Of a stretch of DNA of 64,000 nt, positions 6,448 through 63,719 are shown piece by piece; the first letter of the stretch is position 1, and each line of letters opens with the position of its first letter. The stretch comes from Candidatus Methanomethylophilaceae archaeon. GTDB taxonomy: Bacteria; Cyanobacteriota; Vampirovibrionia; Gastranaerophilales; Gastranaerophilaceae. The notes under the pieces were generated by a model. That model saw only the letters and a list, made by a program, of their open reading frames with translations. It had not been told where the DNA came from and made no database searches. The stretch is taken from assembly GCA_963590665.1 (NCBI GenBank), contig CAVAPR010000004.1, positions 10,492 to 74,491 on the forward strand. The letters run 5' to 3'. The position numbers and the translations under genes were made by a program.

Positions 6448-6480
6448 AGATTATGTTATCATTTCCAGTAAAATTGTCAA

Positions 6481-7385: not shown

Positions 7386-7397
7386 TTATTGACTTTA

Positions 7398-39645: not shown

Positions 39646-39963
39646 TTATTCGGCTTTTCCCATAACGTGAATATGCAAGTGCATAACTTCTTGTCCAGCT
39701 TCTTTGCCAGTATTTATTTGAACTTTATATGCTTTTAGCCCAGCTTTTTTAGCAGAATCTTTGACAGCTTGCATAAGTTCAGCCATCAAATTTTTATCAT
39801 CTAATTCAATTAAAGATTGAATATGTTTTTTAGGACACACAAGCAAATGAACTGGAGCTTTAGGATTTATGTCTTTAAAAACAACAGTATTTTCTGTTTC
39901 ATAAACAAACTCTGTTCCAAAATCCCCGTTAATAATCTTACAAAAAATACAATCTTCACTCAT
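39646..39963 (-). CDS. histidine triad (HIT) family protein
   Basis: CIFCKI N-terminus and HLHIHVMG triad. Confidence 0.9.
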   Translation of the reverse strand: MSEDCIFCKIINGDFGTEFVYETENTVVFKDINPKAPVHLLVCPKKHIQSLIELDDKNLMAELMQAVKDSAKKAGLKAYKVQINTGKEAGQEVMHLHIHVMGKAE

Positions 39964-40363
39964 CTTGATTTCTCCTAACTAAAATTAAATAACCAATACG
40001 AAAAACCCGTATATTGATAAATATAACATAAATAAAGTCTATAAGTCTATAAGTTGATAAGTGAATAAGTCTATAAGTTCGTTACGTAAATTTTCCCTCC
40101 CCAAGGGTGGAGGGATTAAGGGAGAGGGGTTGATGTATAAGGAAAAAGGGACAAGGGAAATAGGGAAATAAGTTCGTTACATAACATTTTCCCTCTCCAA
40201 GAGACACTAGCGGAACCAATAGTTTTACCCTCTCCTTGAGGAGAGGGCTAGGGTGAGGTGGTAAACAGAACAAGCCGAACCTATGAAACTGAGTGCCGTA
40301 TAACTAAGGGCAGGGAGAGGGGTTAACTCAATGCATAGGATATAAAATACTACCCAGAATGAA

Positions 40364-40541
40364 GATACAGCTGTTTCCCCTCCACTTTGAGGGAGGGGAA
40401 GAATTTCAATACGAACTATGTGAGTATTAGAAATTCAGGGGAGGGGGATATTTAATTTCAAACCCCTCCTCGAAATCAAAGATTTCGGTCCTCCCACAAT
40501 CTGGGGAGGACATTATTCTTGGAGTATCAATTGTATGGTCT
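40364..40541 (-). repeat. K element copy 1 (148-nt multi-hairpin core at 40364-40511)
   Basis: Its reverse complement differs from copies 2 and 3 at one position of the 148-nt core (CTCAAAGTGG versus CTCAGAGTGG). Confidence 0.9.
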
Positions 40542-40830
40542 TAATCTGTTTTCTTCTTTGAGAGAGAAGATTTATCTAAACGCATAGGATAGAGATTCTT
40601 CGGGTAAATTTGTAATATTGTTTTTTACATTCAATTATTTACCCCTCAGAATGACTGAACTCTATTTTCCCTCCCCAAGGGTGGAGGGATTAAGGGAGAG
40701 GGTTCTTTTTTTCTAATAAACCCCTCTCCTAACCTCTCCCTCGGAGAGGAATTATGTTCAATATCTTAACAAGCCCGTCATACTGAGCGGAGCGAAGTAT
40801 CTCAAGCTGAACGAGTTCAGATTAACCCCT
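40364..40830 (-). repeat. left arm of the long inverted repeat flanking the pilin-like gene
   Basis: Its reverse complement aligns with 42097-42546 from AGGGGTTAATCTGAAC... to ...GGGGAAACAGCTGTATC. The alignment is interrupted only by module-sized indels. Confidence 0.85.
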
Positions 40831-41794
40831 ATCTATAGTTAATATAATCAGTCCAGTAGTTGTTATGACGAGTTACAGTCTTACCTTTTGCAGAAGTACC
40901 TGTATCTTTTTTATTTCCTAATCTATCAGCCCAGTCCATAGCGGCAATATTTTCTACAGGTTCATTAAAATAGCAATAATCAACCGCAGACCCAGAACCT
41001 TTTCTGTATCCAGTTTGACTTGGCATTTTATTCCCCCAACTATCACTAGAGATTTTATTTATATCACAAAGAACAAATTGACCAGAATAATTGCCAACAT
41101 GCGGGTCATCTGGGTTTTCATTATTTATATATATAGCTATTTCTTTAGCTGTCATTGGTTTAAAAATAAATGTATCTATATTCATTCTATTTGGCGCAGC
41201 TGTTCCATTTATATCAACACAAACGAACTGATTTTCACCATTGAAAGTCCATATACGACCTTTTGAATCAGTCCAAATTCCACCGTTATCACAAACAATT
41301 CCTGGAGATCCTGTTTTATCTTCAGTTTCAGTATTATGAAACCATTTTGGTCCTTGCGGAGCACCAGCATCTTTATATATTTGTTTTAACCTCCCACTTA
41401 TACCATTACTTGAATTAGCATTCTTATCAAAAGGTGCACCTCCTGCTAAATATGACATAAATTCACTTGCCCAACGTCTTGTATCACCATAGACATTTTT
41501 ACCTGCAGCAGTTTGAGTACCACATCTAAAGTTTGGGGCTTTTGACATATCAGTATATACACATTTATAAGCGAACTCACCAACATCGCCATTTTCATAG
41601 TTCATTCTAGCGCCAATTTCTTTGACTTCGCTATATGTTGAGCGGAACTGTTGTTCCAAAACTTTTCCACGGTAATTGTATGCCAAAGTTGGGATTGTCA
41701 ACGCTGCAACAGACCCCAAAAGCCCAATCGCTATCAACAATTCCGCCAATGTAAAACCAGATTTTTTATGCCAAAAACTCACGATTATAACCAA
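40829..41794 (-). CDS. prepilin-type N-terminal cleavage/methylation domain protein (type IV pilin-like, long form)
   Basis: HKKSG|FTLAELLIAIGLLGSVAALTIPTL. Paralog motif VDINGTAAPNRMNIDTFIFKP. 321 aa. Confidence 0.85.
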   Translation of the reverse strand: MVIIVSFWHKKSGFTLAELLIAIGLLGSVAALTIPTLAYNYRGKVLEQQFRSTYSEVKEIGARMNYENGDVGEFAYKCVYTDMSKAPNFRCGTQTAAGKNVYGDTRRWASEFMSYLAGGAPFDKNANSSNGISGRLKQIYKDAGAPQGPKWFHNTETEDKTGSPGIVCDNGGIWTDSKGRIWTFNGENQFVCVDINGTAAPNRMNIDTFIFKPMTAKEIAIYINNENPDDPHVGNYSGQFVLCDINKISSDSWGNKMPSQTGYRKGSGSAVDYCYFNEPVENIAAMDWADRLGNKKDTGTSAKGKTVTRHNNYWTDYINYR

Positions 41795-42096
41795 TCCTCA
41801 TAAACTTCCAATAACATGTTTATTATAACGTATTTTTTGCCTAAAGTCTAGAGGAGGGTGAGAAATGTTGTGAGGAACTTGTTTTAGAATTTCTGGCTAA
41901 ATGCACCAGTTAGAGATGCTGAAACAGCTAATGGCTTCGTCAACGCATACAGACTCACACGTTTCGCCTACAGCTCAACGGTTCGCTTTGTAAAGTTCAA
42001 CATGACAAGTGTGTTCGGTTTACCTCCTCACCCTAACCCTCTCCTCAAGGAGAGGGAAATTCTGTGTTCCTTCTCCCTTGGGAGAAGGTTAGGATG

Positions 42097-42546
42097 AGGG
42101 GTTAATCTGAACTTGTTCAGCTTGAGATACTTCGCTCCGCTCAGTATGACAAACTTGTTAAGATATTGAACATAATTCCTCTCCGAGGGACACTAGCTGA
42201 ACCAACGAAACGAAGTTGAGTTGTGTGAAACTGCGTGCCGTATGGCTGAGGTTAGGAGAAGGGTTGATTAGAAAAAAGAAAAATCCTCTCCCTTAGTCCC
42301 TCCACCCTTGGGGAGGGAAAATAGTGCTATTATTCTGAGGGACAAGTAATTGAATGTAAAAAACAGGCTAAGACTATACAATTGATACTCCAAGAATTGT
42401 CCTCCCCAGATTGTGGGAGGACCGAAATCTTTGATTTCGAGGAGGGGTTTGAAATTAAATATCCCCCTCCCCTGAATTTCTAATACTCACATAGTTCGTA
42501 TTGAAATTCTTCCCCTCCCTCAGAGTGGAGGGGAAACAGCTGTATC
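42097..42546 (+). repeat. right arm of the long inverted repeat flanking the pilin-like gene
   Basis: See the left arm. Contains a 59-nt insert (42191-42249) that is absent from the left arm. Confidence 0.85.
42371..42546 (+). repeat. K element copy 2 (core 42399-42546)
   Basis: The 148-nt core is identical to copy 3. Confidence 0.9.
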
Positions 42547-42591
42547 CTCATTCTGAATAGTATGAAAATGTTATGTAACCAACTTGTAGAC

Positions 42592-43164
42592 TTATCTTAT
42601 CCTTTTACCCAAAGACAAGCCTGCAGGAAGTGGTAAAACTACATTTTCGAAATCAGGGTCTGCATCAATTGCATCTAAAAATGTCTGTACTTTTGCTGCG
42701 TGAGAAATTACATTATCACAAGCAATATAACCACCTACGTTTAAATGTGGTTTTATAAATTCGAAAAACTTAATATATTGCGATTTATTCGCATCAATAA
42801 ATGCGAAATCTATCCTAAAATCCTCTGGCAAATATTCCAAAATCGTTGCGGCATCGCCTTTTCTGGTTTCAATAATATCCCCAACTCCGCATTTTTCAAA
42901 ATTTTCTTTTGCGACATCTAATCTCTTATCGTAAAACTCAATTGTAGTCAACTTACCACCAGTTTTTTTAAGAGCTTTGCCTAACCAAATTCCAGAATAA
43001 CCGTTAGAAGTTCCAACTTCTACAACACTTTTTGCTTTGGAATCAACAATCAAATTGTACAAAAATTCCGCAGTTGGTCGTGAAATATTCCAAAATTGTT
43101 TTTGGGTTTTTTCTAATTCTTTCAAGACTTCTTGAGTCGTGTTATCAAATGTTTCTATAATCAT
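42592..43164 (-). CDS. class I SAM-dependent O-methyltransferase (family 3, caffeoyl-CoA OMT-like)
   Basis: VVEVGTSNGYSGIWLG SAM motif, and IDANKSQY. Confidence 0.8.
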   Translation of the reverse strand: MIIETFDNTTQEVLKELEKTQKQFWNISRPTAEFLYNLIVDSKAKSVVEVGTSNGYSGIWLGKALKKTGGKLTTIEFYDKRLDVAKENFEKCGVGDIIETRKGDAATILEYLPEDFRIDFAFIDANKSQYIKFFEFIKPHLNVGGYIACDNVISHAAKVQTFLDAIDADPDFENVVLPLPAGLSLGKRIR

Positions 43165-50313: not shown

Positions 50314-51021
50314 TTAATAATTCATTCTCCAGCCAGCTTGCATAATTTTATTCAAACAACCAGCAGACCATTCGTGCCAAGCAGTACTAATATTCTTTCC
50401 ACAATTTTCGGGAGGAACACCACCACGACCATAATCTGCAACTGTGCCATCTGTCATTAAGTCAACAGTAAAGAAATCACGACCCGCCATATTTGGTTCA
50501 GCTGGACCATTTGTATCAATAACATACGATGGAATACCATTAGCTTGATTATAACCACCACAAATAGTAGCCCCATTTGTTGTTTGGATACAATAACCAA
50601 AACTTGTTACAACACCAGCCTCACCAGTAGTATCAGAAGCATTAATTTTTGTTTTATGAGCGCCATCCATAGTTTGATAATAATCACCCAAACAAACATT
50701 GTTAGGAGAATATGCTTTTGTTCCACAACCTTTTTTAGTTGTTTTAAAATATTTTGGAAGGAAATAACAAGCGCCTTGAGCCTTATCAGTTCCACAATAT
50801 GCATCATTGGTAGCTAAACGAGTTTTGTACAAACTATCAGCCATTTCATCTGCCATAATAGCTTTTGTCGCATCAGATAGTTGAGAATAAGTTTTCTCAA
50901 TAGATGCAGCCATAACTTTATTTTTATAATCTTTCATAATTGCAGGTATAGTTAATGCTGAAATCAATCCAACAATACCCATAGTTACCAAAACTTCTGA
51001 TAGTGTAAAACCTTTTTTCAT
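50314..51021 (-). CDS. prepilin-type N-terminal cleavage/methylation domain protein (type IV pilin-like)
   Basis: Start at ATG 51021: MKKG|FTLSEVLVTMGIVGLISALTIPAI. IDTNGPAEPNMAGRDFFTVDL. C-terminal AGWRMNY. Closest paralog of 24006..24707. Confidence 0.88.
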   Translation of the reverse strand: MKKGFTLSEVLVTMGIVGLISALTIPAIMKDYKNKVMAASIEKTYSQLSDATKAIMADEMADSLYKTRLATNDAYCGTDKAQGACYFLPKYFKTTKKGCGTKAYSPNNVCLGDYYQTMDGAHKTKINASDTTGEAGVVTSFGYCIQTTNGATICGGYNQANGIPSYVIDTNGPAEPNMAGRDFFTVDLMTDGTVADYGRGGVPPENCGKNISTAWHEWSAGCLNKIMQAGWRMNY

Positions 51022-51089
51022 ATTCCAATCGCCCCGTGAATAAACCATATAAACAATTATACTATTTTTTTTGAATATTTTCAAGTGGG

Positions 51090-51700
51090 AAGTTTTTGTT
51101 AAGGTTGATAGGTCTATAAGTTAGTTACAAGGGGATAGGGAAATAAGTTCGTTACATTGCATTTTTACCCTCTCCTTGGGGAGAAGAAACTTAATATTCC
51201 CCTTCTCCTTGAGGACACTAGCTGAACCAACAACTTTTCCCTCTCCGAGGGAGAGGGACTAAGGGAGAGGGGTTGATTAAGAAAATAAAGACGTCATTCT
51301 GAGGGATTTACATTAGAATAGCAAGATAACATTGCAAATTTACCCGAAGAATCTCAATCCTATGCGTTTAGATAAACCTTCTCTCTCAAAGAAGAAAACA
51401 GACTAAGACCATACAATTGATACTCCAAGAATAATGTCCTCCCCAGATTGTGGGAGGACCGAAATCTTTGATTTCGAGGAGGGGTTTGAAATTAAATATC
51501 CCCCTCCCCTGAATTTCTAATACTCACATAGTTCGTATTGAAATTCTTCCCCTCCCTCAGAGTGGAGGGGAAACAGCTGTATCTTCATCCTGGGTAGTAT
51601 TTATATCCTATGTGTTTAGTTTAACCCCTCTCCCTGTCCTAACCCTCGGAGAGGATAACCAACTTATAGACTTATCCACTCATTGACTTATAAACCTAAA
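51090..51700. repeat. mosaic palindromic repeat block 7 (no gene inside)
   Basis: Bounded by inverted 8-mer edges (GGTCTATAAGTTAGTTAC... and ...AACTTATAGACTTATCCACTCATTGACTTATAA). The interior is largely the reverse complement of block 5 and includes K core copy 3. Confidence 0.9.
51406..51583 (+). repeat. K element copy 3 (core 51436-51583)
   Basis: Core identical to copy 2. Flanks match the reverse complement of 40320-40660. Confidence 0.9.
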
Positions 51701-51753
51701 AAAATAACCGACGTAAAAACATCGGTTATTTTCATCAATTCAAAAAACTTTTA

Positions 51754-52413
51754 TTAGTCGTTGATAACTTTCAAAAGTCTTTCCCATACTTCATCAATTG
51801 AACCTTCTGCATTGATTGTTTTCAACAAGTTTTTATTTTTGTAATAATCAAACAATGGTGCAGTTTCTTTGAAATATGTATCAAAACGAGCTTTTGCTGT
51901 TTCTTCGTTGTCGTCTTTTCTTTGAGTCAATTCAGCGCCACATTTGTCACAAATACCTTCAACTTTTGTAGGTTTGAATTTCAAGTTGTAGATTTCTCCA
52001 CATTTTGGACAAGAACGACGGTTCACAATTCTTGAAATCAAAATTTCAGTATCTAAATCAAAATAAATTGCTCTAAAATCAGCTTCAATATCGCCATCGA
52101 TTTCTTTGTTAATTTCTTCTAACAAGTCAGCTTGTTCAACACTTCTTGGGTAACCATCCAAGATATAACCGTTTTTGCAATCTTCTTGAGATAGTCTATC
52201 TTTGATGATAGAAGCAACTAAAGAAACTGGAACTAATTCACCTTTGTCGATGAAAGATTTAGCGATTTTACCATTTTCAGTTCCGTTTTTGATTTCAGCT
52301 CTTAATAATGAACCAGTATCAACATGTGGAAAACCTAAAGATTCAGCAAGTCTTGAAGTTTGAGTACCTTTACCACAAGCTGGAGGTCCTAAAAAAATAA
52401 GTTCTTTTTTCAT
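51754..52413 (-). CDS. adk: adenylate kinase
   Basis: Start at ATG 52413: MKKELIFLGPPACGKGTQ P-loop, and a zinc-lid CPKCG...CDKCG. Confidence 0.97.
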   Translation of the reverse strand: MKKELIFLGPPACGKGTQTSRLAESLGFPHVDTGSLLRAEIKNGTENGKIAKSFIDKGELVPVSLVASIIKDRLSQEDCKNGYILDGYPRSVEQADLLEEINKEIDGDIEADFRAIYFDLDTEILISRIVNRRSCPKCGEIYNLKFKPTKVEGICDKCGAELTQRKDDNEETAKARFDTYFKETAPLFDYYKNKNLLKTINAEGSIDEVWERLLKVIND

Positions 52414-52504
52414 AATCATTTCACTCTTTCTATTTTTTATACCAAATATTTTAATCTCGTTAAAACCAACAGAACAATTGTACATCAAGGATTTTTATTA
52501 TTCA

Positions 52505-53165
52505 AGAAGGTTTTAATAAAGTGGATAAGTCAATAAGTCTATAAGTGGATAGGGTGGTTAAAAGGGATAAGGAAGAAGGGAATAGGGGAATAAGTTCTTT
52601 ACATTGCAATTTACCCTCTCCTTGAGGAGAGGGCTAGGGTGAGGTGGTAAACAAAACGCATTGGTCACCCCGAACTCGTTTCAGCATCTCAATCCTATGT
52701 GTTCAGTTTAACCCCTCACCTCAATCCTCTCCCCAAGGAGAGGAAGATATTTTATTGAGATACTTCGCTTCGCTCAGTATGACTAACACCGAACAGTCAT
52801 TCCGAATTTAGTTCGGAATCTCTATCCAAACGCACTAGTTAGAGATGCTGAAACAAGTTCAGCATGACATATTTGAATAAGGGGGGTTCGGGGGCTATGC
52901 CCCTGATGACTCGAGCCATTTAATCATTCGTGTTTTTCTTTTTCGGTTCTGCTTTTTCTTTTTTCATCGAAATAAAAAAGAAAAAGTGAACAATTATTTT
53001 ATATCGGATTTAATAAACCGACAAACATTTCTTTATTAAATCAACCCCTCTCCCTTACCCTCTTCCCTTGGAGAGGGTATAAAATTGACGGTTCTGAACT
53101 TATTTCCCTATTCCCCTGTTCCTTCTCCCTTTTAACCAACTTATTGACCTATAGACTTTTAGTGA
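52505..53165. repeat. mosaic palindromic repeat block 8 (no gene inside)
   Basis: Inverted edges at 52520-52600 and 53095-53160. Interior holds the same modules as block 1, including F module copy 4. Confidence 0.9.
52880..52991 (+). repeat. F module copy 4
   Basis: Near-identical to 5427-5536. Confidence 0.9.
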
Positions 53166-53245
53166 ATATTCCCTTTAAATATTCCTTTTTTGTAGTAAAA
53201 TGTTCCATGTAATACGGTATGTACAAAAGGAAAGGACTTAAATAC

Positions 53246-54954: not shown

Positions 54955-54991
54955 ACGGCTTTTTCGATGAAACGAAAAAGCCGTTTTTTTA
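54955..54991 (+). terminator. intrinsic terminator after pfp
   Basis: 12-bp perfect stem ACGGCTTTTTCG/CGAAAAAGCCGT followed by TTTTTTT. Confidence 0.85.
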
Positions 54992-54997
54992 TATATT

Positions 54998-55378
54998 TTA
55001 AAACAAATGATAATATTTCATATAGTTTGCCATAATTTCAGAACTAACTCCATTTGCAACATTGGCTTTTACAACTTGTTCTTTATCTTGATTAGTTTTA
55101 TCATCAATCTTAGAAGACTCTTCATTTTGGGTTTGAGATTGCTCTTGTTGCTGTATTTCTTGAAGTTGTTCTGCAACTTGCTCAACTTGTTTCATCAAAT
55201 CTTCATGAAGTTTTACATCGCCAGAAAATGAGCCCGTAGATTGAATACCAACGGTATCTAAATCCTCAAGGATTTGTTCCCATTGAGAATAGTTTGTGAT
55301 ACTCGTACCTTGTGCTTGTGCAGCAGCTTGCGCTTTCCGCAGTTCTTCAACTGATTTAATCTCTTCTACATTATCCAT
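54998..55378 (-). CDS. acidic Q/E-rich hypothetical protein
   Basis: 126-aa ORF. No family recognised. Confidence 0.5.
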   Translation of the reverse strand: MDNVEEIKSVEELRKAQAAAQAQGTSITNYSQWEQILEDLDTVGIQSTGSFSGDVKLHEDLMKQVEQVAEQLQEIQQQEQSQTQNEESSKIDDKTNQDKEQVVKANVANGVSSEIMANYMKYYHLF

Positions 55379-55505
55379 AATGCGCCTCTTCTTTTTAGCT
55401 TTATATATTAATTAAGTAGAAAAAATTTTCCCAATTTCAAATATAAAATTTTTTGTAACAAATGTTTATATTCGTGAAAGATATTTACAATACTTAGGTA
55501 AAAGT

Positions 55506-55534
55506 TTGACATGAATTTTTGCTTAATTTACTAT
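55506..55534 (+). promoter_or_regulatory. candidate sigma-70 promoter of the 55685-58382 operon
   Basis: TTGACA (55506-55511), 17-nt spacer, TACTAT (55529-55534). Confidence 0.55.
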
Positions 55535-55540
55535 CAAAAT

Positions 55541-55684
55541 AAGAGGAAATGAAGTGAATATCTTCAACTGAAGCCGCAGCCGTAAAAGTCGGAACGCTCG
55601 AAAAAAGAACCAATCCTACGTGCAATTTGGGATTGGGAGATACTTCTTTTTTATAGCGTCCTCTAAAATTTAGAGGATTTTTTA
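55541..55684 (+). promoter_or_regulatory. structured 5' leader with terminator/anti-terminator and RBS sequestration
   Basis: Hairpin TCCTCTA/TAGAGGA (55659-55665 / 55671-55677) followed by TTTTTT, ending 1 nt before ATG 55685. The only SD (AGAGGA, 55672-77) is the 3' half of that stem. An upstream AAGAGGA (55541-47) can pair with the 5' half instead. An internal perfect 7-bp hairpin CCAATCC/GGATTGG lies at 55610-55635. Confidence 0.5.
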
Positions 55685-56398
55685 ATGTCATTAGGTGCAA
55701 CCGCAGTACATACTCATACAGCCAAAACTGGTTCATGCCCGCATGGCTTGCCACAAGGAGCATGCCCAATTTGTAATGGGTTAGCTGGCGGAAACTCCAC
55801 AACAAAAAGAGATATACCAAGAAATGTTGGAGAAATGACATACAACCAATGCGCAGCAATTGGTGCAATGCTCAGAGCGCAAAAACATGCCAGACAACAA
55901 GCTCAATTAGCTCAACAAAATCATTTGCAGGCAATAGCCGAGTTTCAAAAATCGATTGCTACAGCTTACCAAAGAATTATGGATTTAGCTTCTAGTATTT
56001 CTAAAAGTACACCAGCCATAATCGCAAAACCATTAAATTTTGTTTTAACAAATATCATTGGGCGAACTTTAAATATTATTCAAAATATTCCAAATGTTAT
56101 TTCTAATATAACAAGCGCAATTATTCAAAAATTTGCAGACATATCAGATAAATTAACAGCAGTATATGGAGAATTAAAAGCGGCAATCAAAGAAAAAATC
56201 TCTAAATTTACAAATAACTTTAAAAAGAAATTAAAATCTCTCTTCTTTGTTTTCGGAACAGAAGAAACTGATGACGAGGACAAAAAAATTGAAGAAGCTA
56301 AAAGAGCATTTGAATTAAAAACATTTATTCACAAGCTTTTTGGCAAAACTAAAAACCTAAACGAAAAGGAAACAAAAAAGGATGATACCTCCGATTAA
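55685..56398 (+). CDS. hypothetical protein with N-terminal CPHG...CPIC zinc-ribbon-like motif and amphipathic/coiled-coil body
   Basis: 237-aa ORF containing GSCPHGLPQGACPICNG and a K/E/D-rich C-terminus. Confidence 0.6.
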   Translation: MSLGATAVHTHTAKTGSCPHGLPQGACPICNGLAGGNSTTKRDIPRNVGEMTYNQCAAIGAMLRAQKHARQQAQLAQQNHLQAIAEFQKSIATAYQRIMDLASSISKSTPAIIAKPLNFVLTNIIGRTLNIIQNIPNVISNITSAIIQKFADISDKLTAVYGELKAAIKEKISKFTNNFKKKLKSLFFVFGTEETDDEDKKIEEAKRAFELKTFIHKLFGKTKNLNEKETKKDDTSD

Positions 56399-57875
56399 TG
56401 ATGTTGAAATTAAACGGCAGCAACGAAACTTAACTAATTCACAAAAAAAGAATATTACAACTACCAAAGAAGGTGTGTTAGTAAATTCTCTTATCAAAGA
56501 TAAGGAACAAGACGTAAATCTTTCTTCTTCAAAAGATACTTACTTGATTTCGGATAAAATTTCAATGCCCCAAGAACTTTATCAAGATAATAAAATCGTA
56601 GATAAAAAACTACTGCCACTCAGTGGAATTGCATTAGGAGTAATGTCTTCTGTTGCGATAATTACTGGATTTGTAAACCGTAGCGCTAAAGTTGCTCAAA
56701 ATCTCGCAAAAGAAAAATGGCTTCCAGCAGTAACAAGAAACGTAAACCTAAGCAAAGAAACATCCCAAGTTATCTATCAAATGATTCAAAGCCCAAATAA
56801 AAAAACTTTTATTGCTGGAACTGGAGTTTTAGCACTTTCCGTTATGGCATTTATGGGTAAAACATTTTTTGATGGATATAAAGATGTTTGGGTAAAACGT
56901 AAAGAAGCCAATATTCAAAAAAATCTGCAAGAAAATTTGATTGCAGTTGAAACAGAATCATTTGCAGGGAAAATGCAAATCATTAGAAGTATGCTTTCAA
57001 AATACACTCTCGATTTTGAAAAATATATTCAACCCAAAAATGAAAGTGTTCTTCAAAATTTTGGCAAAAACAAATTCTTAACAATGCCTTTTACGTCTAA
57101 TAATGAAAAACAAAATGAAAAAACTTCCAATATTGGAAATATTATGTTAGGAGGTTTAACTTTTGCGGGAATTATTGGTTTAGGCTATTTGTCTTTGAGA
57201 AATTTAACTAAAAGTAAACTACATTTGCAAGAAGGTTTGAAACAAGCACAAAATGCAATTGAAAAGATTGTAGAATCTTCATCTGAAAACTCAAAAAATA
57301 TGGATAAAAATAATCTAGAGCATTTATTTATTTCAATTGAAGGTTCAGAAGATTTTATTCGTGAAAATGTTAACAAATTAAATTGGAACAGTGATAAAGA
57401 AAAAAGAGAATTTATCAAAAGAATTGTAAGCAAAATCAAAACATCTGCTGCAAAAGTTAATCCAAATATTGGTGGTGATGGAACTCCGAAACCAGCATTC
57501 AACTCATTTGTAGATGATTATCGAGCTTTTTTCTATAATTGGTTATTAGATACTTCTAATCCACAATTCCAACAACTTTTCCTTGGCGTAACAGGAGTTA
57601 CAGCTATTGGTTATGGTGGAAAATTAGCAGGTGATGCAATTAAAGAAGTCCAAGTAAAAAAAATAAATGCAGAAACTGAACTAGAACTCCAAAAACGCTT
57701 AGTTTCTACAGAGTTACGCAACTTTAAATCTAAGAAAGATGCCGCAATTCTTCCATTAGTTGAGGAATTTTACAAGCAAGTTGATAGTGGAAAACGTACA
57801 AAAGAAGAATTGAAAACAATGGCTGAAAATGTTTTGTTCGAAATTAAAAATGGACCACCATTTGTTTATTCTTAA
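56382..57875 (+). CDS. hypothetical membrane protein (about 4 TM helices)
   Basis: 497-aa ORF overlapping the upstream gene by 17 nt. Hydrophobic helices include LLPLSGIALGVMSSVAIITGFV, FIAGTGVLALSVMAFMG, IMLGGLTFAGIIGLGYLSL and LFLGVTGVTAIGYGG. Confidence 0.6.
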   Translation: MIPPINDVEIKRQQRNLTNSQKKNITTTKEGVLVNSLIKDKEQDVNLSSSKDTYLISDKISMPQELYQDNKIVDKKLLPLSGIALGVMSSVAIITGFVNRSAKVAQNLAKEKWLPAVTRNVNLSKETSQVIYQMIQSPNKKTFIAGTGVLALSVMAFMGKTFFDGYKDVWVKRKEANIQKNLQENLIAVETESFAGKMQIIRSMLSKYTLDFEKYIQPKNESVLQNFGKNKFLTMPFTSNNEKQNEKTSNIGNIMLGGLTFAGIIGLGYLSLRNLTKSKLHLQEGLKQAQNAIEKIVESSSENSKNMDKNNLEHLFISIEGSEDFIRENVNKLNWNSDKEKREFIKRIVSKIKTSAAKVNPNIGGDGTPKPAFNSFVDDYRAFFYNWLLDTSNPQFQQLFLGVTGVTAIGYGGKLAGDAIKEVQVKKINAETELELQKRLVSTELRNFKSKKDAAILPLVEEFYKQVDSGKRTKEELKTMAENVLFEIKNGPPFVYS

Positions 57876-57890
57876 TATGAGGAATTATTT

Positions 57891-58382
57891 ATGAATGTTC
57901 AACAAATTCAAATGACAAATATTCACCCAATGCCTCAACCAAGGCAATACATTTGCGATTCTTGTATTTTGCCACAGGGAAATAGAAATTATTGCCTAGT
58001 TGATAAAAATGAAGTGGATTATTTTGTTAACCAAAAAGAGAAATCTCTTCCATATTTAGCTGATATTCTCCAACATTCACAAAACGAAGCTCAAGTGACA
58101 GAAACACTTCTTATCATTGATAGAATGATAGATAATGGCACAAAAGGAATTGATAAATTATATCCAGTATTTGCGAAGTTCAATGATACAAAATCTCCAA
58201 ACGTTCAAACTTATTTAGCTGGAATTTATAGAAAAATTCAAGTGCCAGATGCATTTGGACCACTTGTCAAAATGCTTATTCAAAACTCACTTCAACCAGC
58301 GGATAAAAATGCACCATTTGACCCCAATGAAGAAATTGGTGGGGCTATTTTGAGTTATTTGTCAGATAGATTTAGACATTAA
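57891..58382 (+). CDS. hypothetical protein (possibly helical-repeat)
   Basis: 163-aa ORF 15 nt after the previous gene, with AGGAA upstream. Confidence 0.55.
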   Translation: MNVQQIQMTNIHPMPQPRQYICDSCILPQGNRNYCLVDKNEVDYFVNQKEKSLPYLADILQHSQNEAQVTETLLIIDRMIDNGTKGIDKLYPVFAKFNDTKSPNVQTYLAGIYRKIQVPDAFGPLVKMLIQNSLQPADKNAPFDPNEEIGGAILSYLSDRFRH

Positions 58383-59337
58383 TATTGCTATTCAAAAAAC
58401 AGGCAGATTTGTGGACAGGTGTGATATGTTGCAATACTGGAATTTCTTTTGTACAAATATCCATACAATAATTACATCTTGGATGGAATTTACAACCATC
58501 AATTTTCTGAGATAATGATGGTGGTTGTCCTTGAATTGTTTCTAACTTATTCCCACGATTTGAAGGAAGGGATTTTAATAGGGCTTTTGAATATGGGTGT
58601 TGAGGATTGTTAAAAAATTCAGCATTTGGAGCATTTTCAACAATTCGCCCAGAATACATTACAGCAATCTCGTCTGCATTTTCACTCACCAAAGCCAAAT
58701 CATGAGTAATCAGAAGAATAGATGTACCATTATTTAATTTAATATCATTCAAAAGCTTCATAATCTGAGCTTGAATTGTTACATCTAACGCTGTTGTAGG
58801 CTCATCTGCAATCAATATTTCTGCCTTACAAGCTAAAGCCATAGCAATAATTGCTCTCTGTTTCATACCGCCAGAAAATTCATGAGGATAGTTTTTTAAC
58901 CTTGATTTTGCATCAGGAATTTGTACCGCTTCAAAAGCTTCAATCGCCTTTTCTTCTGCTTGAGCCCCGTGTAAATTTTGATGAATTTTGATAATTTCTA
59001 AAAGCTGGTCACCAACTGTATAGAGTGGATTTAATGACGTCATTGGGTCTTGTGGAATAAGTGCGATTTTCCCACCTCGAATTTTTTGCATTTGGCTATT
59101 ATTTTTTAGAAGCAAATTTTCATTATTATACAAAATTTCACCAGAAGTAATCCTTGCAGTTTTTGGAATAAGCCCAAGAATACTCATTGCACTCATTGTC
59201 TTTCCACAACCAGATTCCCCAACAAGTGAAAGCATTTTACCCTTGTGCAACTCAAAACTAACATCATAAAGCGCCTGTCTAAAAATGTCCTCACATTGAA
59301 AACCCAAATTCAAATTTTTAACTTCTAAAATTGCCAT
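58372..59337 (-). CDS. oppD: oligopeptide/dipeptide ABC transporter ATP-binding protein
   Basis: Walker A GESGCGKT, signature FSGGMKQR, Walker B ILIADEPTTALD, and a C-terminal oligopeptide-type Cys motif CKFHPRCNYCMDIC. No partner permease or binding-protein genes are adjacent. Confidence 0.85.
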   Translation of the reverse strand: MAILEVKNLNLGFQCEDIFRQALYDVSFELHKGKMLSLVGESGCGKTMSAMSILGLIPKTARITSGEILYNNENLLLKNNSQMQKIRGGKIALIPQDPMTSLNPLYTVGDQLLEIIKIHQNLHGAQAEEKAIEAFEAVQIPDAKSRLKNYPHEFSGGMKQRAIIAMALACKAEILIADEPTTALDVTIQAQIMKLLNDIKLNNGTSILLITHDLALVSENADEIAVMYSGRIVENAPNAEFFNNPQHPYSKALLKSLPSNRGNKLETIQGQPPSLSQKIDGCKFHPRCNYCMDICTKEIPVLQHITPVHKSACFLNSNINV

Positions 59338-59530
59338 CAAAAATAATTATATATTTCTTTAGAGGATAAGTAAATAGTAAACTAGGCAGACTTGAAAAAT
59401 TTTAGAAATCATTTAAAATAAAAATAGAGGCGGGAATCACTACCCCACCCTAAAATCGGTTAGAGTTTCTTTAAAGAGATGATTGATAAGTAGGATTGTT
59501 ATCATCTCTTTTAGTATTTTTACTTATTAC

Positions 59531-59667
59531 TTGAAAAATATTAAAAATAGTTTATAATATAAACATAGGAAAGAGTGATTAAACTCTCGAACAGTCTAAT
59601 CACCCTGTCGCATCTATAAGAACAGATAAGTTAATAAAAAATCTCTAGTTAAAACTAGAGATTTTTT
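59531..59667 (+). ncRNA. candidate ~100-nt small RNA (promoter, hairpin, terminator) between oppD and metG
   Basis: TTGAAA (59531-36), 16-nt spacer, TATAAT (59553-58). Hairpin GTGATTA/TAATCAC at 59575-59603, extendable to about 59572-59606. Terminator AAAAATCTCTAG...CTAGAGATTTTT at 59636-59667, which is symmetric and can also terminate metG. Confidence 0.4.
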
Positions 59668-59684
59668 ATATGAATTTTAATATT

Positions 59685-61256
59685 CTATTTCTTAGATTTG
59701 TCAGCGAGTTCGCTATCAACTCTCAAAAATACTGGGTGAATTTCTTCTTTTGAAATAAGTTTTCCAACTTTTAGATTTGTTGTTGTAACATCATCCAATT
59801 TTTTAGATATATCATAAGACAATTGTTTTGCCATATCAGAAGCAATATTTGGACAGTATGGATAAATCAATGATGAAATTACACACATAACTTCTAATAC
59901 TGTTGAAAGAACTTGACCACATTCTGTCATTTTTTCTTCTTTTGCAAGTGTCCAAGGCGCATTGTCTGTTACAAATTTGTTTGTAGCATCGACAATTGAA
60001 ATGATGGCTTGCGCTGCTTCTTGAATTTCAAAGTGGTTGAAATGATTTTCAACAATTTTAACTGTTCCTAATGCAGTTCTCAAAAGGCTTTCAGCTTCTT
60101 TTGAACGATTAGTTAAAAATTCTTCTTTAATTTCACCATCAAAATATTTTACAAGCATTGAAAGACTTCTATTTAACAAGTTGCCCATGCTATTTGCAAG
60201 GTGAGCATTAACTTTTTCTTTAAAATCTAAATCAGAATAGTTTCCATCACGACCACAAGGAGCGGATGTTGCCATATAATATCTAAATGCGTCAGGATGT
60301 TCTAAGTTGTAGTGTTCAAGAACAGATGTTGGAGAAACAACGTTACCCAATGATTTTGACATTTTAGTTTCATCTATTGTAATCCAGCCGTGAGCAAAAA
60401 TATGTTTTGGCAATGGTAAATCTAAAGCCATCAAAATTCCAATCCAATAAATACTGTGGAATTTCAAAATATCTTTACCAATTACGTGAACATCAACTGG
60501 CCATAATTTTTTAAATTGTTCAGATGGATTTTCTGTATCGTAACCAATAGCTGTAATGTAATTTGAAAGTGCATCAATCCAAACATAGATTGATTGTTCT
60601 GGGTCATCAAGAACATCAATACCCCAGCCTACATTTGCTTTATTTCTAGAAACAGAAATATCTTGAATATCTTCTAACTGGTTTAGAACTTCATTTGCTC
60701 TAAAACTTGGAACGATAAAATCTGGATGAGATTTGATATGTTCCATAATTGCATTTTTATAAGATGACAATTTAAAGAAATAATTTTCTTCTTTAACAAC
60801 TTCTGGTTTCTTCAAGTGGTCTGGACATAATCCATCTTCTGTCAAATCTTTTGGATTTAGAAAACATTCACAACCAGAACAATATAAACCTTCGTATTCG
60901 TGTTTGTAAATATCACCTTTTTCAACAAGTTTTTTAAAGATTTTTTGAACAACTTTTTCGTGATCTTCATCTGTTGTACGGATAAATCTATTGTAATTAA
61001 TATCTAACGCTTTCCACGCATCTTTGAATTTTTGCGCATTTTCATCACATAATTGTTTTGGAGTTTTGCCTTGAGCTGCAGAGGTTTTTTGGATTTTAAT
61101 TCCGTGTTCATCTGTACCAGTCAAGAAAAACAAATTATCTGTTCTTTGAGAAAAATGTCTTGCGATAATATCTGACAAGATTTTTTCATAAGCGTGACCA
61201 ATGTGTGGAGCACCATTAACATAATCAATTGCGGTAGTTAAATAAAATTTATCCAT
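59685..61256 (-). CDS. metG: methionine--tRNA ligase (short form)
   Basis: HIGHAY and KMSKS motifs and zinc-knuckle CSGCECF...CPDH. 523 aa, without the C-terminal tRNA-binding extension. Confidence 0.97.
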   Translation of the reverse strand: MDKFYLTTAIDYVNGAPHIGHAYEKILSDIIARHFSQRTDNLFFLTGTDEHGIKIQKTSAAQGKTPKQLCDENAQKFKDAWKALDINYNRFIRTTDEDHEKVVQKIFKKLVEKGDIYKHEYEGLYCSGCECFLNPKDLTEDGLCPDHLKKPEVVKEENYFFKLSSYKNAIMEHIKSHPDFIVPSFRANEVLNQLEDIQDISVSRNKANVGWGIDVLDDPEQSIYVWIDALSNYITAIGYDTENPSEQFKKLWPVDVHVIGKDILKFHSIYWIGILMALDLPLPKHIFAHGWITIDETKMSKSLGNVVSPTSVLEHYNLEHPDAFRYYMATSAPCGRDGNYSDLDFKEKVNAHLANSMGNLLNRSLSMLVKYFDGEIKEEFLTNRSKEAESLLRTALGTVKIVENHFNHFEIQEAAQAIISIVDATNKFVTDNAPWTLAKEEKMTECGQVLSTVLEVMCVISSLIYPYCPNIASDMAKQLSYDISKKLDDVTTTNLKVGKLISKEEIHPVFLRVDSELADKSKK

Positions 61257-61374
61257 TTATCATTTTCCTTTATATTACTTAGTGAATTATATCTAAATCT
61301 TAGCACAAACAAGGGTTTTGAGTTGACAAACAAGTGAAAAATGATATATTAAACAATAAGCATAGGAGCTTTTT

Positions 61375-61800
61375 ATGAAGAAAAATTTTATAATAACATT
61401 ACTCGCAATTTTAGCAACAAGTTCAATTGCATTGGCAGATTTTAGTAATTTTAGTCCACTAGCAAAATTGAAAGTTGGGCGATATGTATGTAAATACCAA
61501 GCTCAAAACAGATACTCTAGATCTCTTTCTGACAAATGTATTATAAGTATTGACAAATGGGGTGGAATTAGTCAAGAAAATTGTCCTACTGATTCAACAG
61601 AAACAATGAAACTTGTTCAAGATGGCAAATGTACATATTCGCCAGACCGAAACCAATATTTTACTTGTAAATATCCTCAAGGGACTTGCAAAGTATTAAT
61701 TGCCCCTGAATCTGGCTCATATACAGGATGTTCTGGCACAATTACTGATTTTGATAGAGTCGAAGCTGATGCTAAAGCTGGAAAATGTTCTAAAGAATAA
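61375..61800 (+). CDS. secreted Cys-rich hypothetical protein
   Basis: Signal peptide MKKNFIITLLAILATSSIALA and multiple Cys. Candidate promoter TTGACA (61323-28) / TATATT upstream. Confidence 0.55.
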   Translation: MKKNFIITLLAILATSSIALADFSNFSPLAKLKVGRYVCKYQAQNRYSRSLSDKCIISIDKWGGISQENCPTDSTETMKLVQDGKCTYSPDRNQYFTCKYPQGTCKVLIAPESGSYTGCSGTITDFDRVEADAKAGKCSKE

Positions 61801-61871
61801 AAATTTTTAGGCAATTTTTTTAGACAAAAATACTTTATATATATGTAGGTAAAATATAAAGGAATAGTATT

Positions 61872-62315
61872 ATGTCTGAAAATTGGGTTACAGCCTTAGA
61901 TGGTTTAGCTGCTGGCGGTGTTATTGATTTTGATGCTCCAGCTTATTTACTAAATCAACCTTCAAGATACGTTGGTCATCCGCAATTAGCAGAACTTCCA
62001 ATGACAAATATCGCTCTACTTCCAGAAGGAACAAAGATTAAACCTTTGCCTAAAGAAGACGAGTTTCAACATTCTGACGACACCCTTGTTAAAAATCCTA
62101 AATGGAAAAAAGTTTTGACAAGTTTGCTTGTAGCAGGCGGTGTTGCAGCTAGCGTAGTTGGAATTTTGGCTCATCGTGGCAAAATTGATTTATCTAAAAT
62201 TAAATCAAAAATTAAAATGCCTAAAATGTCTGGTGTAAAAAATGCTGGCAAAACAGTATTAAATTACATCAAAAAGCCATTCCAATTTATCGCAGGTAAA
62301 TTTAAAAAGCCGTAG
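61872..62315 (+). CDS. hypothetical tail-anchored, Lys-rich protein
   Basis: 147-aa ORF with TM helix VLTSLLVAGGVAASVVGILA, followed by a K-rich tail. Confidence 0.5.
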   Translation: MSENWVTALDGLAAGGVIDFDAPAYLLNQPSRYVGHPQLAELPMTNIALLPEGTKIKPLPKEDEFQHSDDTLVKNPKWKKVLTSLLVAGGVAASVVGILAHRGKIDLSKIKSKIKMPKMSGVKNAGKTVLNYIKKPFQFIAGKFKKP

Positions 62316-62322
62316 GTCTTAA

Positions 62323-63669
62323 TTAAATATCTACTCCTTGCATCATATCAACGAGTTGTTTGATTGTACCTTCCATAGTTACGCTTTCAGATGTTCTTTG
62401 CTGAAGAAAAGCGTTAACTTTTGGCATCATTTGGATTGCAATATCCAGTTTAGGATTAGAGCCTGGTTGGTACATACCTACATCAATTAAATCCTTATTC
62501 TCTCTGTACATTGATAATATAGTTCTCAATTTTCCAGCAGCAGCCTTGTGTTCAGGTGTTGCAATTGCACTCATCAAACGGGAAATACTACCCAAAACAT
62601 CAATTGCTGGATAGTGGTTTGATTCCGCAACCTTTCTTGATAAGAAAATATGACCGTCAACAATACCACGCACAATATCTACGATTGGGTCAGAAATATC
62701 ATCACCTTCCATAAGTACGGTATATAGTGCCGTAATTGAACCCTTTGGGCTGTTTCCTGCTCGTTCAAGAACTTTTTGTAGCCATGAGAAAATTGAAGGT
62801 GGATAACCCTTCATTGTTGGAGGTTCACCTAGTGACAAACCTACTTCACGCCCCGCCATAGCACAACGTGTAACGGTATCAGTCATCAAGAAAACTTTTT
62901 TACCTTGATCTCTAAAGTATTCACATACAGCAGTCGCCGTAAGAAGTGCTTTTTGACGAATTAGTGGCGGTTGGTCACCTGTTGAACAAACAAGAACAGA
63001 TTTTGCCATACCAACTTCGCCCAAAGAATCCTCAACAAATTCTTTAACTTCTCTTCCACGTTCGCCAATTAGTGCAACAACGTTAACATCAGCATCAGAA
63101 TTTCTGGCAATCATACCCAATAAAGTACTTTTACCAACCCCAGAACCTGCAAATAATCCCAAACGCTGTCCACAACCCATAGTCATACAACCATCAATAG
63201 CTCGAACACCTGTTGAAAACTGTTCTGTAATAATTGGTCTTTCAAAAGGTCCTGGTGGAGGTCCTTCGATTGGTCGCCAAAGTGCGTTTGTTGTATCAAG
63301 AGGTTTTCCATCAATCGGATTTCCAAGCGGGTCAATCAATCGCCCTAACAAAAAATCCCCAACAGGAACAGTAATTGGGCGTCTTGTTGAAGTTACCAAA
63401 CTTCCTTGACCAATTCCGCTACCATCTAATAAAAGTGATAACTGGGCAACTTCACCTTTGAAAGCTTGAACTTCTGCGGGTTTTAGTTTGCCATCATAAG
63501 TTTCGATATAACACAAATCGCCAATTTTCAGCCCTGGGAGTTTAACCTCAACAGTCAACCCCAAAAGTTTGGAAACTGTTCCTTTATAAGAATACAACTC
63601 TGTTTGAGCTAATTTTTCTTTGACTTTGTGTTTTAACTCTTCTAAATCACTTTTATCAATATCTTCCAT
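62323..63669 (-). CDS. fliI: flagellum-specific (type III secretion) ATPase FliI
   Basis: Walker A GSGVGKSTLLGMI, Walker B VFLMTDTVTR. Overall F1-beta-like layout with an N-terminal beta-barrel. Confidence 0.9.
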   Translation of the reverse strand: MEDIDKSDLEELKHKVKEKLAQTELYSYKGTVSKLLGLTVEVKLPGLKIGDLCYIETYDGKLKPAEVQAFKGEVAQLSLLLDGSGIGQGSLVTSTRRPITVPVGDFLLGRLIDPLGNPIDGKPLDTTNALWRPIEGPPPGPFERPIITEQFSTGVRAIDGCMTMGCGQRLGLFAGSGVGKSTLLGMIARNSDADVNVVALIGERGREVKEFVEDSLGEVGMAKSVLVCSTGDQPPLIRQKALLTATAVCEYFRDQGKKVFLMTDTVTRCAMAGREVGLSLGEPPTMKGYPPSIFSWLQKVLERAGNSPKGSITALYTVLMEGDDISDPIVDIVRGIVDGHIFLSRKVAESNHYPAIDVLGSISRLMSAIATPEHKAAAGKLRTILSMYRENKDLIDVGMYQPGSNPKLDIAIQMMPKVNAFLQQRTSESVTMEGTIKQLVDMMQGVDI

Positions 63670-63719
63670 ATCAATAATTATAACAAAATTTTTGACGTAA
63701 TCAATTTATTAACTCAGTA

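Follow-up and report, generated by a model that had tools for sequence, protein, structure and literature searches.

Mosaic repeat islands such as BIMEs, NIMEs and BOX elements are well known, but little is understood about their boundaries and their growth. Cyanobacteria, the sister group of the host lineage studied here, carry short tandem 7–8-nt arrays in their intergenic DNA, and small dispersed repeats, STRR heptamer arrays and Nezha MITEs are known there as very small repeats that insert into one another. To our knowledge, no STRR array has been reported to bound a mosaic island in a polar manner, and STRR arrays are likened to the present repeats by description, not by sequence. The foldback (FB) transposons of Drosophila have long inverted arms of short tandem repeats, variable in number, and sometimes carry a gene-bearing central 'loop'. 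FB elements are, however, eukaryotic, and they transpose as a unit with target duplications, neither of which was seen for the islands described here. NIMEs and Correia elements are, like these islands, intergenic arrays of short repeats, and they too adjoin DNA that varies between strains and is swapped by recombination, surface-protein and pilin loci among it. NIMEs, however, consist of RS segments between dRS3 palindromes, at which phages integrate; Correia elements carry 26-bp TIRs together with a duplicated TA; and outward-facing 8-mer arrays are found in neither.

The BOX elements of Streptococcus pneumoniae and S. suis are composite repeats of the form boxA–boxB(n)–boxC (PMC3049150). 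Both they and the islands are composite intergenic repeats with distinct, mutually pairing terminal modules and a variable interior, and both vary in length between strains and cluster or nest with other small repeats (PMC3049150). The minimal, ends-only BOX form (A1C1) has its counterpart in a clear edges-only unit of 116 bp (C40:6571–6686), situated outside the 64,000-nucleotide stretch of DNA analysed here (the window), and clear evidence of target-site duplication is missing for some pneumococcal repeat families, as it is for the islands (PMC3049150, which also mentions Nezha). In contrast to BOX, the terminal module of the islands is itself a phased 8-bp array, the same on both sides and inverted; the interior consists of many unrelated hairpin families, whereas that of BOX consists of tandem boxB copies; and the islands reach ~1 kb, sometimes enclose genes and reside in a host of a different phylum. 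The islands have the BOX type of composite organization (terminal modules, variable interior, ends-only form), the likeness being one of architecture and not of sequence homology. BIMEs and REP clusters, with their REPINs and RAYTs (PMC3116915), are, like the islands, extragenic mosaics of hairpin repeats that favour the 3′ ends of genes. The genome studied here likewise contains one RAYT gene, with its REP on either side and further copies of that REP inside islands. The island edges and most of the modules are, however, not the REP of this RAYT, and BIMEs are without a polar boundary array (PMC3116915).

About 200 islands were found in this gut Melainabacteria (Gastranaerophilales) genome, where they make up 4–5% of 2.0 Mb, each being a mosaic of short hairpin modules. 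Repeat DNA accounts for about 7.3–8% of the window, in agreement with the ~8% estimated in the first-pass annotation. Because the assembly consists of 63 contigs, many of which end in islands, the counts are lower bounds and some edge pairs are split. No edge was detected for 82 internal island calls, many of them small or fragments of split islands. We consider it probable (roughly 0.6) that the family represents lineage-specific composite intergenic repeat islands of the BOX/BIME/NIME kind, with stable polar ends, fast-changing interiors and enclosed genes that are passengers.

The edge, which usually forms the outer limit of an island, is a specific module of ~46 bp, AAAAGT-CTATAGGT-CAATAAGT-GGATAAGT-CTATAAGT-TNGTTAC, in which an array of 4–5 phased 8-bp units carries TNGTTAC at its inner end. 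The window contains 19 copies of the pattern ATAAGTNNATAAGT (ATAAGT-NN-ATAAGT), compared with 0.01 expected from shuffles. A second (type-2) array, AAGGnAAT or AAGGCACT, often comes after the first array of an edge. Edges were located with an nhmmer profile built from the clear copies, and the genome-wide census yielded 126 merged copies. It is apparent that they are polar: 110 of the 126 are oriented outward at an island boundary and one is wrongly oriented there, while 12 of the 15 internal edges face the nearer boundary. Among the 121 edges that could be tested, 96 have repeat DNA inside and unique DNA outside, and one has the reverse. What is new here is a defined boundary sequence with strong polarity on mosaic repeat islands.

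In the edge alignment, information content falls to background directly past TTAC, and beyond that point the sequence splits into many module classes. Of 127 edges, 53 have an exact TTAC at the inner end and another 26 a near variant of it. For insertion of the IS200/IS605 type, in which new DNA would start directly 3′ of a fixed, TTAC-like tetranucleotide, the empty alleles, with GGTTAA(A/C), offer no clean before-and-after comparison. Convergent edge pairs without a gene (n=24) span 116–1083 bp, four or five further pairs enclose 1–4 genes each, and the spacing of edge pairs is bimodal.

The edges begin a median of 7 bp past stop codons and keep ~84 bp from start codons, and islands are present in 12.6% of convergent, 6.9% of tandem and 5.4% of divergent spacers; the islands thus occupy dispensable spacer DNA. 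Proximity to stop codons, the 96:1 polarity, the strict 8-bp phasing of the units with position-specific variable dinucleotides, and a near-consensus DnaA box inside each edge (87 of the 150 genomic copies of TTATCCAC lie within edges) would also suit host-functional protein-binding sites, rather than the ends of selfish elements. Such sites might serve as boundaries or insulators, as mRNA 3′-end structures or as DnaA-titrating boxes or, in a variant of this explanation, as Chi-like polar signals that would shield flanking genes from breaks in hairpin-rich islands. We regard a host role of this kind as quite unlikely. Triple-ATAAGT arrays number 121 in this genome and zero in 27 of the 36 congeners searched, with widely varying copy number in the remainder, so a conserved host function is not implied; the same pattern read backwards, as a control, gave no match in this genome. 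In addition, both the number of array units and the presence of an edge differ between strains at one and the same site, and edge-less islands exist. The edge and island family is expanded in this species and missing from most congeners. The 18-base edge pattern was too generic for public genome and viral collections, where it recovered scattered microsatellite-like arrays from many phyla; the related matches came from Gastranaerophilales/Melainabacteria MAGs.

Two gene-free islands at 51–53 kb, blocks A and B, had been described as bounded by inverted edges, and nhmmer matches at both ends of each, on opposite strands, bear this out:

51086–51139, + strand: left edge of block A (nhmmer 51104–51129, E=0.003)
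51140–51655, no strand: interior of block A, a hairpin-module mosaic (families D5, I1, I2)
51656–51697, − strand: right edge of block A, a type-1 octamer array (nhmmer E=5.8e-10)
52519–52604, + strand: left edge of block B (nhmmer 52519–52548, E=2.5e-6; inverted repeat I8)
52605–53072, no strand: interior of block B, hairpin modules (families D1, D3, D6, D11, D14)
53073–53158, − strand: right edge of block B (nhmmer 53137–53158, E=0.0055)

The left edge of block A comprises a weak type-1 octamer array (GTTGATAGGTCTATAAGTTAGTTAC) and then a G/A-rich type-2 array up to AAGTTCGTTAC; the alignment with strain L101 passes through it, reaching 51139. The right edge of block A points outward to the adk stop codon and persists as a degenerate copy in L032, L021 and L101 (L021 and L032 being metagenome loci compared by eye). 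In block B, a type-1 array (52519–52548) followed by a G/A-rich type-2 array up to AAGTTC forms the left edge, and a type-2 array with a weak type-1 array forms the right edge, which points outward to the PFK promoter. The arms of block B (52535–52620 and 53073–53158, I8) are 77% complementary, the G/A-rich segment included. That segment had been assigned to all four edges; it is present in both arms of block B and in the left edge only of block A. Interior modules recur elsewhere: the 179-nt multi-hairpin segment at 51435–51613 of block A is repeated at 42398–42576 and, inverted, at 40345–40624, while a 136-nt D1 module occupies 52879–53014 of block B. A scan of the window at Rfam gathering thresholds returned a cobalamin riboswitch only, with no match to any module, and no tRNA gene was found near the blocks.

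The interiors are replaced between strains. At site A the edges are kept and the interior is exchanged, with entirely different modules between the edges in L032 and L101. Site B exists in three allelic forms, one of 650 bp with edges, one with ~390 bp of different modules and one with a 52-bp filler. The 220-bp segment 52858–53077 lies in block B in the window and in block A in L101 and L032. It is the outer edge that stays constant and the interior that varies between strains.

Islands and edges elsewhere in the window are associated with genes, as follows:

5030–5081, + strand: left edge of unit 5030–7395 (nhmmer E=1.8e-11)
5701–6414, − strand: pilin-like gene in that unit (Pfam N_methyl, 25.9 bits)
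6481–6696, + strand: 71-aa HTH gene in that unit
7360–7395, − strand: right edge of that unit (nhmmer E=1.3e-7)
23241–23302, + strand: sigma-70-like promoter, TTGAAA...TATAAT (inverted repeat I23, by alignment; without nhmmer match)
24813–25366, no strand: gene-free island 3′ of the tandem pilin genes (nhmmer E=2.6e-11)
30858–30912, no strand: conserved hairpin GCGGATAAGT ... ACTTATCCAC (same arms in 10 of 10 other strains)
34294–34362, + strand: edge-like, G/A-rich type-2 array by the start of a TP_methylase gene (read by eye)
35322–35440, − strand: two right edges, stacked and pointing the same way (nhmmer E=6.2e-5 and 1.7e-12)
40034–40085, + strand: left edge of unit 40034–42597 (nhmmer E=1.2e-12)
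40829–41794, − strand: pilin-like gene in that unit (Pfam N_methyl)
42575–42597, − strand: weak right edge of that unit, GTAACCAACTTGTAGACTTAT (sub-threshold in nhmmer, read by eye)

The edges of the first unit form a consecutive (+,−) pair around its two genes. In the second, the position of the left edge holds an edge in 11 strains, and the right edge is stronger in strains L106–L113. In gene-containing units, the left island is a long inverted copy of the right one (I1, I2, I4, I16). The HIT–methyltransferase slot occupied by the second unit measures 1.7–2.6 kb in 11 strains and 132 bp in L114; in at least 27 of 40 congeners the two flanks adjoin directly, and the slot contains different single modules in different species and a solo edge in one (G051). 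The pilin-bearing unit at 40.0–42.6 kb is a derived insertion, and whole blocks, sometimes gene-bearing, are gained and lost.

Four of six pilin-like genes had been placed inside edge-bounded units. The number drops to two of six (5701–6414 and 40829–41794) because 23277–23302, taken as the left edge of a unit around the tandem pilin genes, proved to be the −10 region of a promoter, common also to the paralogous pilin gene at 50314–51021. The supposed right side of that unit, the 24.8-kb island, has an inner right edge at 25256–25294 (−) and an outer, one-unit edge at 25344–25364 (−), and is polymorphic: four strains have a 91-bp spacer in its place. The outermost one-unit edge is common to all alleles and is the sole remnant in the 91-bp spacer, which looks like a deletion scar. 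The island comes and goes and both pilin genes stay. In the synteny comparison, suggested earlier as a means of detecting gain and loss of whole units, the 40.0–42.6 kb unit behaved as one derived block, and at 24.8 kb the island alone turned over.

Two other sites required reassessment. The hairpin at 30858–30912, thought to be a ~55-bp minimal version of the unit, is only one 8-mer deep; it is no more than a one-unit relative of the edges, and its membership of the family is thus doubtful. The tentative bracketing of a 153-aa gene at 34.3/35.4 kb was correct in that edge arrays are present: the array at 34294–34362 is kept in nine strains, and the stacked right edges (35322–35349 and 35396–35440) have a type-2 array between them, with a weaker edge and a REP at this site in other strains. 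It fails in that the 153-aa gene deletion in L113 has its junction within hairpin modules, not at the edges.

That junction bears on whether each unit is a mobile element of the MITE or foldback type, the edges being its terminal inverted repeats and the whole moving either empty or with genes. Terminal inverted repeats are indeed present, and the tight size range of the 24 gene-free convergent pairs, the 116-bp edges-only copy, the all-or-none occurrence of the 40.0–42.6 kb unit when compared with L114 and other members of the genus, and the long inverted copies in gene-containing units are all as such an element would predict. We nevertheless consider it unlikely. No target-site duplications were seen outside 28 edge pairs, the flanks being unrelated A/T-rich sequence, and the two edges of a given island resemble each other no more closely than edges taken from different islands do (permutation p=0.13), which gives no sign of co-derivation. 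The interiors differ as mosaics, and are unrelated among strains in a slot whose edges are kept. Edges also occur singly (in G051 and in the 91-bp allele), and the same whole unit was not found at two loci. Finally, no transposase with edge-like ends was found among the genes in the longer edge pairs or in genome-wide searches for Y1_Tnp and GIY-YIG. The proposal of one family in several states of loading therefore holds for the forms themselves (solo edge, edges-only, modules-only and gene-containing) and not for a mobile element that loads surface-protein genes.

The pilin-like genes raise a further alternative, namely a platform or hotspot dedicated to the capture of surface-protein genes, in the manner of an integron or a pilin cassette locus. 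N_methyl was matched by all five of the pilin-like genes tested, four of them above the Pfam cut-off. Pilin-like genes have an island as neighbour more often than other genes (28% vs 14%, OR 2.3, p=0.008), particularly downstream (26% vs 9%, OR 3.6, p=2e-4). Of the 10 genes within short edge pairs, 2 are pilin-like (p=0.037), as are 3 of 11 once the weak-edge unit is counted (p=0.004), and the same pilin(−)/HTH(+) cassette is found in two units. The mild enrichment that a capture hotspot predicts was thus observed. However, 42 of the 58 pilin-like genes are without an adjoining island and 256 non-pilin genes have one, most island neighbours being housekeeping genes; other enclosed genes, named by eye from sequence, encode TPR, membrane, ferritin-like and flavodiiron-like proteins, and some are without assignment. 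The tandem pilin genes at 23.3–24.7 kb remain fixed while their island comes and goes. The edges around genes are inverted, not direct like the recombination sites that flank an integrated cassette, and no recombinase ORF adjoins the units within the window. The enrichment would also be expected if monocistronic accessory genes simply tolerate downstream repeats. A dedicated capture system is thus highly unlikely, and the enclosure of pilin genes by islands is only occasional and incidental.

As regards a driver, the single RAYT (Y1/HUH) gene (C36:7338–7886; Y1_Tnp match, 41 bits) has its REP, GTTGGGCAGGTATGCCCAACCTAC, on both sides. This REP (GTAG plus hairpin) is one module type, with ~40 copies, most of them inside islands. 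The edges are 8-mer arrays, not hairpins, and are distinct from it; no link of the RAYT to the edges or to non-REP modules was found. Two other candidates were rejected: the ORFs inside the longer edge pairs comprise the TPR, membrane, ferritin and flavodiiron proteins and unassigned ORFs noted above, with no transposase recognized by eye; and a GIY-YIG ORF lies inside an island in strain L106, but the three small GIY-YIG genes of the genome studied here adjoin neither islands nor edges.

The edges could themselves be polar 'landing pads', directly 3′ of whose TTAC new hairpin modules, and occasionally gene-bearing segments, would be added by a single-strand (HUH/Y1-type) or other insertion system. 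The phased 8-bp array would then probably be coated by a small DNA-binding protein, and islands would grow inward from a stable outer anchor. This is also improbable in our estimation; if true, the edges would constitute a platform on which non-coding modules accumulate directionally, in loose analogy to an integron or a CRISPR leader.

In the composite-island explanation that we prefer, the modules would be non-autonomous elements, inserted in trans and nesting within the space that the edges delimit. The inner TTAC, where conservation ends exactly, may be a preferred landing site. Recombination among dispersed copies would move, swap and delete the interiors, and the pilin and HTH cassettes, with the other enclosed genes, would be passengers of this turnover and not designed cargo. 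As the link to pilins is weak, the islands should not be taken for a surface-variation system. They do affect the assembly and comparison of Melainabacteria genomes, because contigs break at islands, and they mark strain-level gain and loss of accessory genes, as well as the adk–PFK synteny break, in an uncultured gut lineage. A polar edge that recurs at the same slots among strains provides a handle on how such islands are nucleated and limited.

Repeat DNA fills the intergenic spaces on either side of adk, at 51021-51754 (to a pilin-like gene) and at 52416-53219 (to the PPi-PFK gene). A repeat survey of the window counted over 60 families of direct repeats, together with 318 inverted pairs, with clusters at 5.0-5.7, 6.7-7.4, 24.8-25.4, 35.0-35.5, 40.0-40.8, 41.9-42.6, 51.1-51.7 and 52.5-53.2 kb. 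In a self-BLAST of the genome, positions with at least three matches made up 7.3% of the window, and the figure of about 8% given by the first-pass annotation was borne out once low-copy stretches inside the islands were included; the genome-wide repeat fraction is 4-5%. The motif ATAAGT-NN-ATAAGT occurs in 19 copies in the window, versus 0.01 expected from shuffled sequences.

The islands flanking adk, block A (51090-51700) and block B (52505-53165), had been described as bounded by inverted edges with a G/A-rich segment at each. The inverted edges were recovered with an nhmmer profile, as listed below; in block A the G/A-rich segment is present on the left only.

Edges of blocks A and B
51104-51129, plus strand: edge of block A
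51656-51697, minus strand: edge of block A
52519-52548, plus strand: edge of block B
53137-53158, minus strand: edge of block B

The consensus of 84 arrays, anchored on the last ATAAGT, reads AAAAGT-CTATAGGT-CAATAAGT-GGATAAGT-CTATAAGT-T(C/G)GTTAC. Since the variable dinucleotide in each unit also shows position-specific preferences, the edge is a specific sequence of about 46 bp with internal 8-bp phasing, and not a loose microsatellite. Past TTAC the information content is at background at once; what follows is a G/A-rich array of the same period (AAGGnAAT... ending AAGTTCGTTAC), a AAGGCACT array ending GAGTTCTTTATG, or a hairpin module with no intervening array.

Genome-wide, the profile detected 126 edges after merging (plus strand, 62; minus strand, 64). 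The AAAAGT end points outward at an island boundary in 110 of these; one is reversed and 15 are internal. An internal edge usually stands in a stack with another edge or a single module ahead of it, and 12 of the 15 likewise face the nearer boundary. A count that made no use of the island calls gave 96 edges out of 121 with repeat DNA within 200 bp inward and unique DNA outward, and one with the opposite arrangement. Outside the window, at 7670-8675 of contig C13, a 293-bp unit is present in three tandem copies, every copy with a complete edge and all three edges oriented alike; a segment of an island has been amplified here.

Distances between consecutive (+,-) edges in the genome are bimodal. 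Twenty-four pairs of 116-1083 bp are gene-free, including a clean ends-only copy at 6571-6686 of contig C40, and four pairs of 2.0-3.7 kb enclose two to four genes; the remaining pairs are far apart. Of 27 (-,+) pairs, one is shorter than 1.2 kb. It is apparent that the proposed series of unit states (gene-free, ends-only and gene-containing) exists, with (-,+) edges almost never close together.

Gene-containing edge pairs (protein names in the third and fourth were read from translated sequences)
window 5030-7395: cassette of pilin (minus strand) and HTH (plus strand) genes
contig C4, 86361-88362: cassette of pilin (minus strand) and HTH (plus strand) genes
third pair: TPR protein and membrane protein
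fourth pair: ferritin, flavodiiron protein and two small ORFs
window 40034-42597: fifth unit, right edge weak in this genome and clear in other strains

Such pairs might be read as a transposon in which an island moves as a whole with both edges. This is unlikely: inspection of 28 pairs showed no target-site duplications, the two edges of an island resembled each other no more than cross pairs did (permutation p=0.13), and no transposase was found among the ORFs, read by eye, inside any edge pair. The only Y1/HUH transposase of the genome is of RAYT type (contig C36, 7338-7886, outside the window; 182 aa, with HIHLIL and YIHYNP motifs). The REP repeat GTTGGGCAGGTATGCCCAACCTAC lies on both sides of its gene (region 7299-7935), and a third, inverted REP-like copy lies within the coding sequence (7611-7631). 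About 40 REP copies are present, most of them inside islands and some 6-16 bp from an edge, so that at least one module class has a plausible mobilizing enzyme; no evidence was found tying the RAYT to the edges.

The strongest evidence comes from comparisons among strains and species, the strain contigs being metagenome assemblies in which repeats may be collapsed. At the adk-PFK site the junctions are identical across alleles (...TTATTCAAG on one side, TTTAAATATTC... on the other), with the following contents.

Alleles between adk and PFK
window: 650-bp island with edges
strain contigs L032 and L101: about 390 bp of other modules, no type-1 edge (ATAAGT octamer array)
strain contig L021: 52-bp filler

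The adjacency of adk and PFK (window 52416-53219) is specific to the species. In congeners these genes lie on separate contigs or at distances of 2 kb to over 30 kb, and block B therefore sits on a synteny break or rearrangement breakpoint. In L101 and L032 the inverted equivalent of window 60460-63712 directly follows PFK, and 54990-60460, including a cobalamin-riboswitch operon, is missing there; relative to the window, these close strains differ by an inversion and an indel of 5.5 kb at 54990-63712. Between the pilin-like gene and adk, edge positions are the same in L032, L021 and L101 and the interior is unrelated; a 220-bp segment found in block B of the window is in block A of those strains.

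The slot between the HIT and methyltransferase genes (window 39963-42592) spans 1.7-2.6 kb in 11 strains, with a pilin-like gene and both edges, and 132 bp in strain contig L114. When the two flanks were joined and used as a query, at least 27 of 40 congeners matched in a single uninterrupted alignment, so the gene-containing unit at 40034-42597 is derived. The spacer in sampled species consists of 25-50 bp, or of one to three unrelated hairpin modules; colonization of the slot thus took place independently in several species. G051, the closest edge-bearing species, has a solo left edge there and nothing more; an edge can thus exist alone. In one of the 11 strains, strain contig L106 (5285-5581, equivalent to window ~41.8-42.6 kb), an additional 98-aa GIY-YIG nuclease ORF is inserted inside the island on the right-hand side of the pilin gene; in the window's own genome, genes of the GIY-YIG family showed no association with islands.

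The spacer holding island 24813-25366 measures 714 bp in the window; two strains have a 523-bp spacer with other modules, and four have one of 91 bp. An outermost one-unit edge (...GTAACCAACTTATAGACTTTT) is common to all alleles. Both tandem pilin genes are kept in all strains compared, whichever island allele they carry, and are therefore not cargo of this island. The suggested 23.3/25.3 kb bracket around them is not upheld: its degenerate left edge, 23277-23302, gave no profile match, is instead a TTGAAA...TATAAT promoter, and aligns with the sequence preceding the paralogous gene 50314-51021, also a pilin gene (inverted-repeat pair I23 of the survey). At 34.3-35.4 kb, the 153-aa gene is missing in strain contig L113 and, judged from gene spacing, in L354 and L357; in L113 the junction falls between a pair of CCCTCTCC/GGAGAGGG hairpin modules and not at the edges that had tentatively been taken for unit ends. 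The supposed minimal element at 30858-30912, between the OmpH and PNP genes, proved to be a stable hairpin with GGATAAGT/ACTTATCC arms, a ~13-bp stem (AAAGCGGATAAGT / ACTTATCCACTTT) and an A/T-rich loop, kept in all 10 other strains examined. It may be a terminator or regulatory hairpin, and it may be a one-unit relative of the edges, but its behaviour is not that of an element.

This genome has 121 triple ATAAGT arrays, and none when the pattern is read backwards. Such arrays were absent from 27 of 36 congeneric species genomes searched; the others have 28, 18, 13, 6, 5 and 3, two have one each and one has two. Given this distribution, the edge is a lineage-specific expansion of recent origin rather than a conserved regulatory device, and we consider it improbable that edges are binding arrays with a host function. 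Each edge contains a near-consensus DnaA box, TTATCCAC(T) (e.g. window 35331-35339, 35404-35412 and 51675-51683), and 87 of the 150 genomic copies of TTATCCAC are inside edges; this content is treated as a curiosity.

Edges facing the 3' end of a gene start a median of 7 bp past the stop codon, and those facing a 5' end keep a median distance of 84 bp. Among intergenic spacers, islands occupy 12.6% of the convergent, 6.9% of the tandem and 5.4% of the divergent ones. This placement is the pattern of repeats filling any dispensable DNA.

The pilin-like genes of the window have an N-terminal methylation motif, and a motif scan found 58 such genes among the 1852 ORFs called in the genome with our own heuristic. 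An island lies within 250 bp of 28% of them, compared with 14% of other genes (p=0.008), and the excess is on the downstream side (26% versus 9%, p=2e-4). Pilins account for two of 10 genes inside short edge pairs (p=0.037), or three of 11 with the weak-edge unit counted (p=0.004). The enrichment is real but modest. Of six pilin-like genes in the window, two are enclosed by edge pairs, not four. That islands serve as a platform for pilin capture seems very improbable, as they are absent at 42 of the 58 pilin-like genes and present at 256 other genes, among them adk, with one island on each side. The enrichment matches the expectation for monocistronic accessory genes that tolerate repeats.

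Taken together, these results match composite mosaic islands of BOX/BIME/NIME type (PMC3049150, PMC3116915), with a stable, polar, 8-bp-phased terminal module as the new feature. The island interior probably turns over through small-module insertion, deletion and exchange between islands, and genes are now and then enclosed and are gained or lost together with the block. The outward orientation of the arrays would be explained, in our preferred reading, if an edge receives new material on its inner (TTAC) side and whatever extends into genes or promoters is purged by selection.

The present assembly consists of 63 contigs, many ending in islands, and several public assemblies of related strains are broken exactly at islands (contig ends of L102, L103 and L104, equivalent to ~42.6 kb of the window). 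This repeat family therefore sets a limit to how contiguous Melainabacteria MAGs can be, and they will under-represent it.
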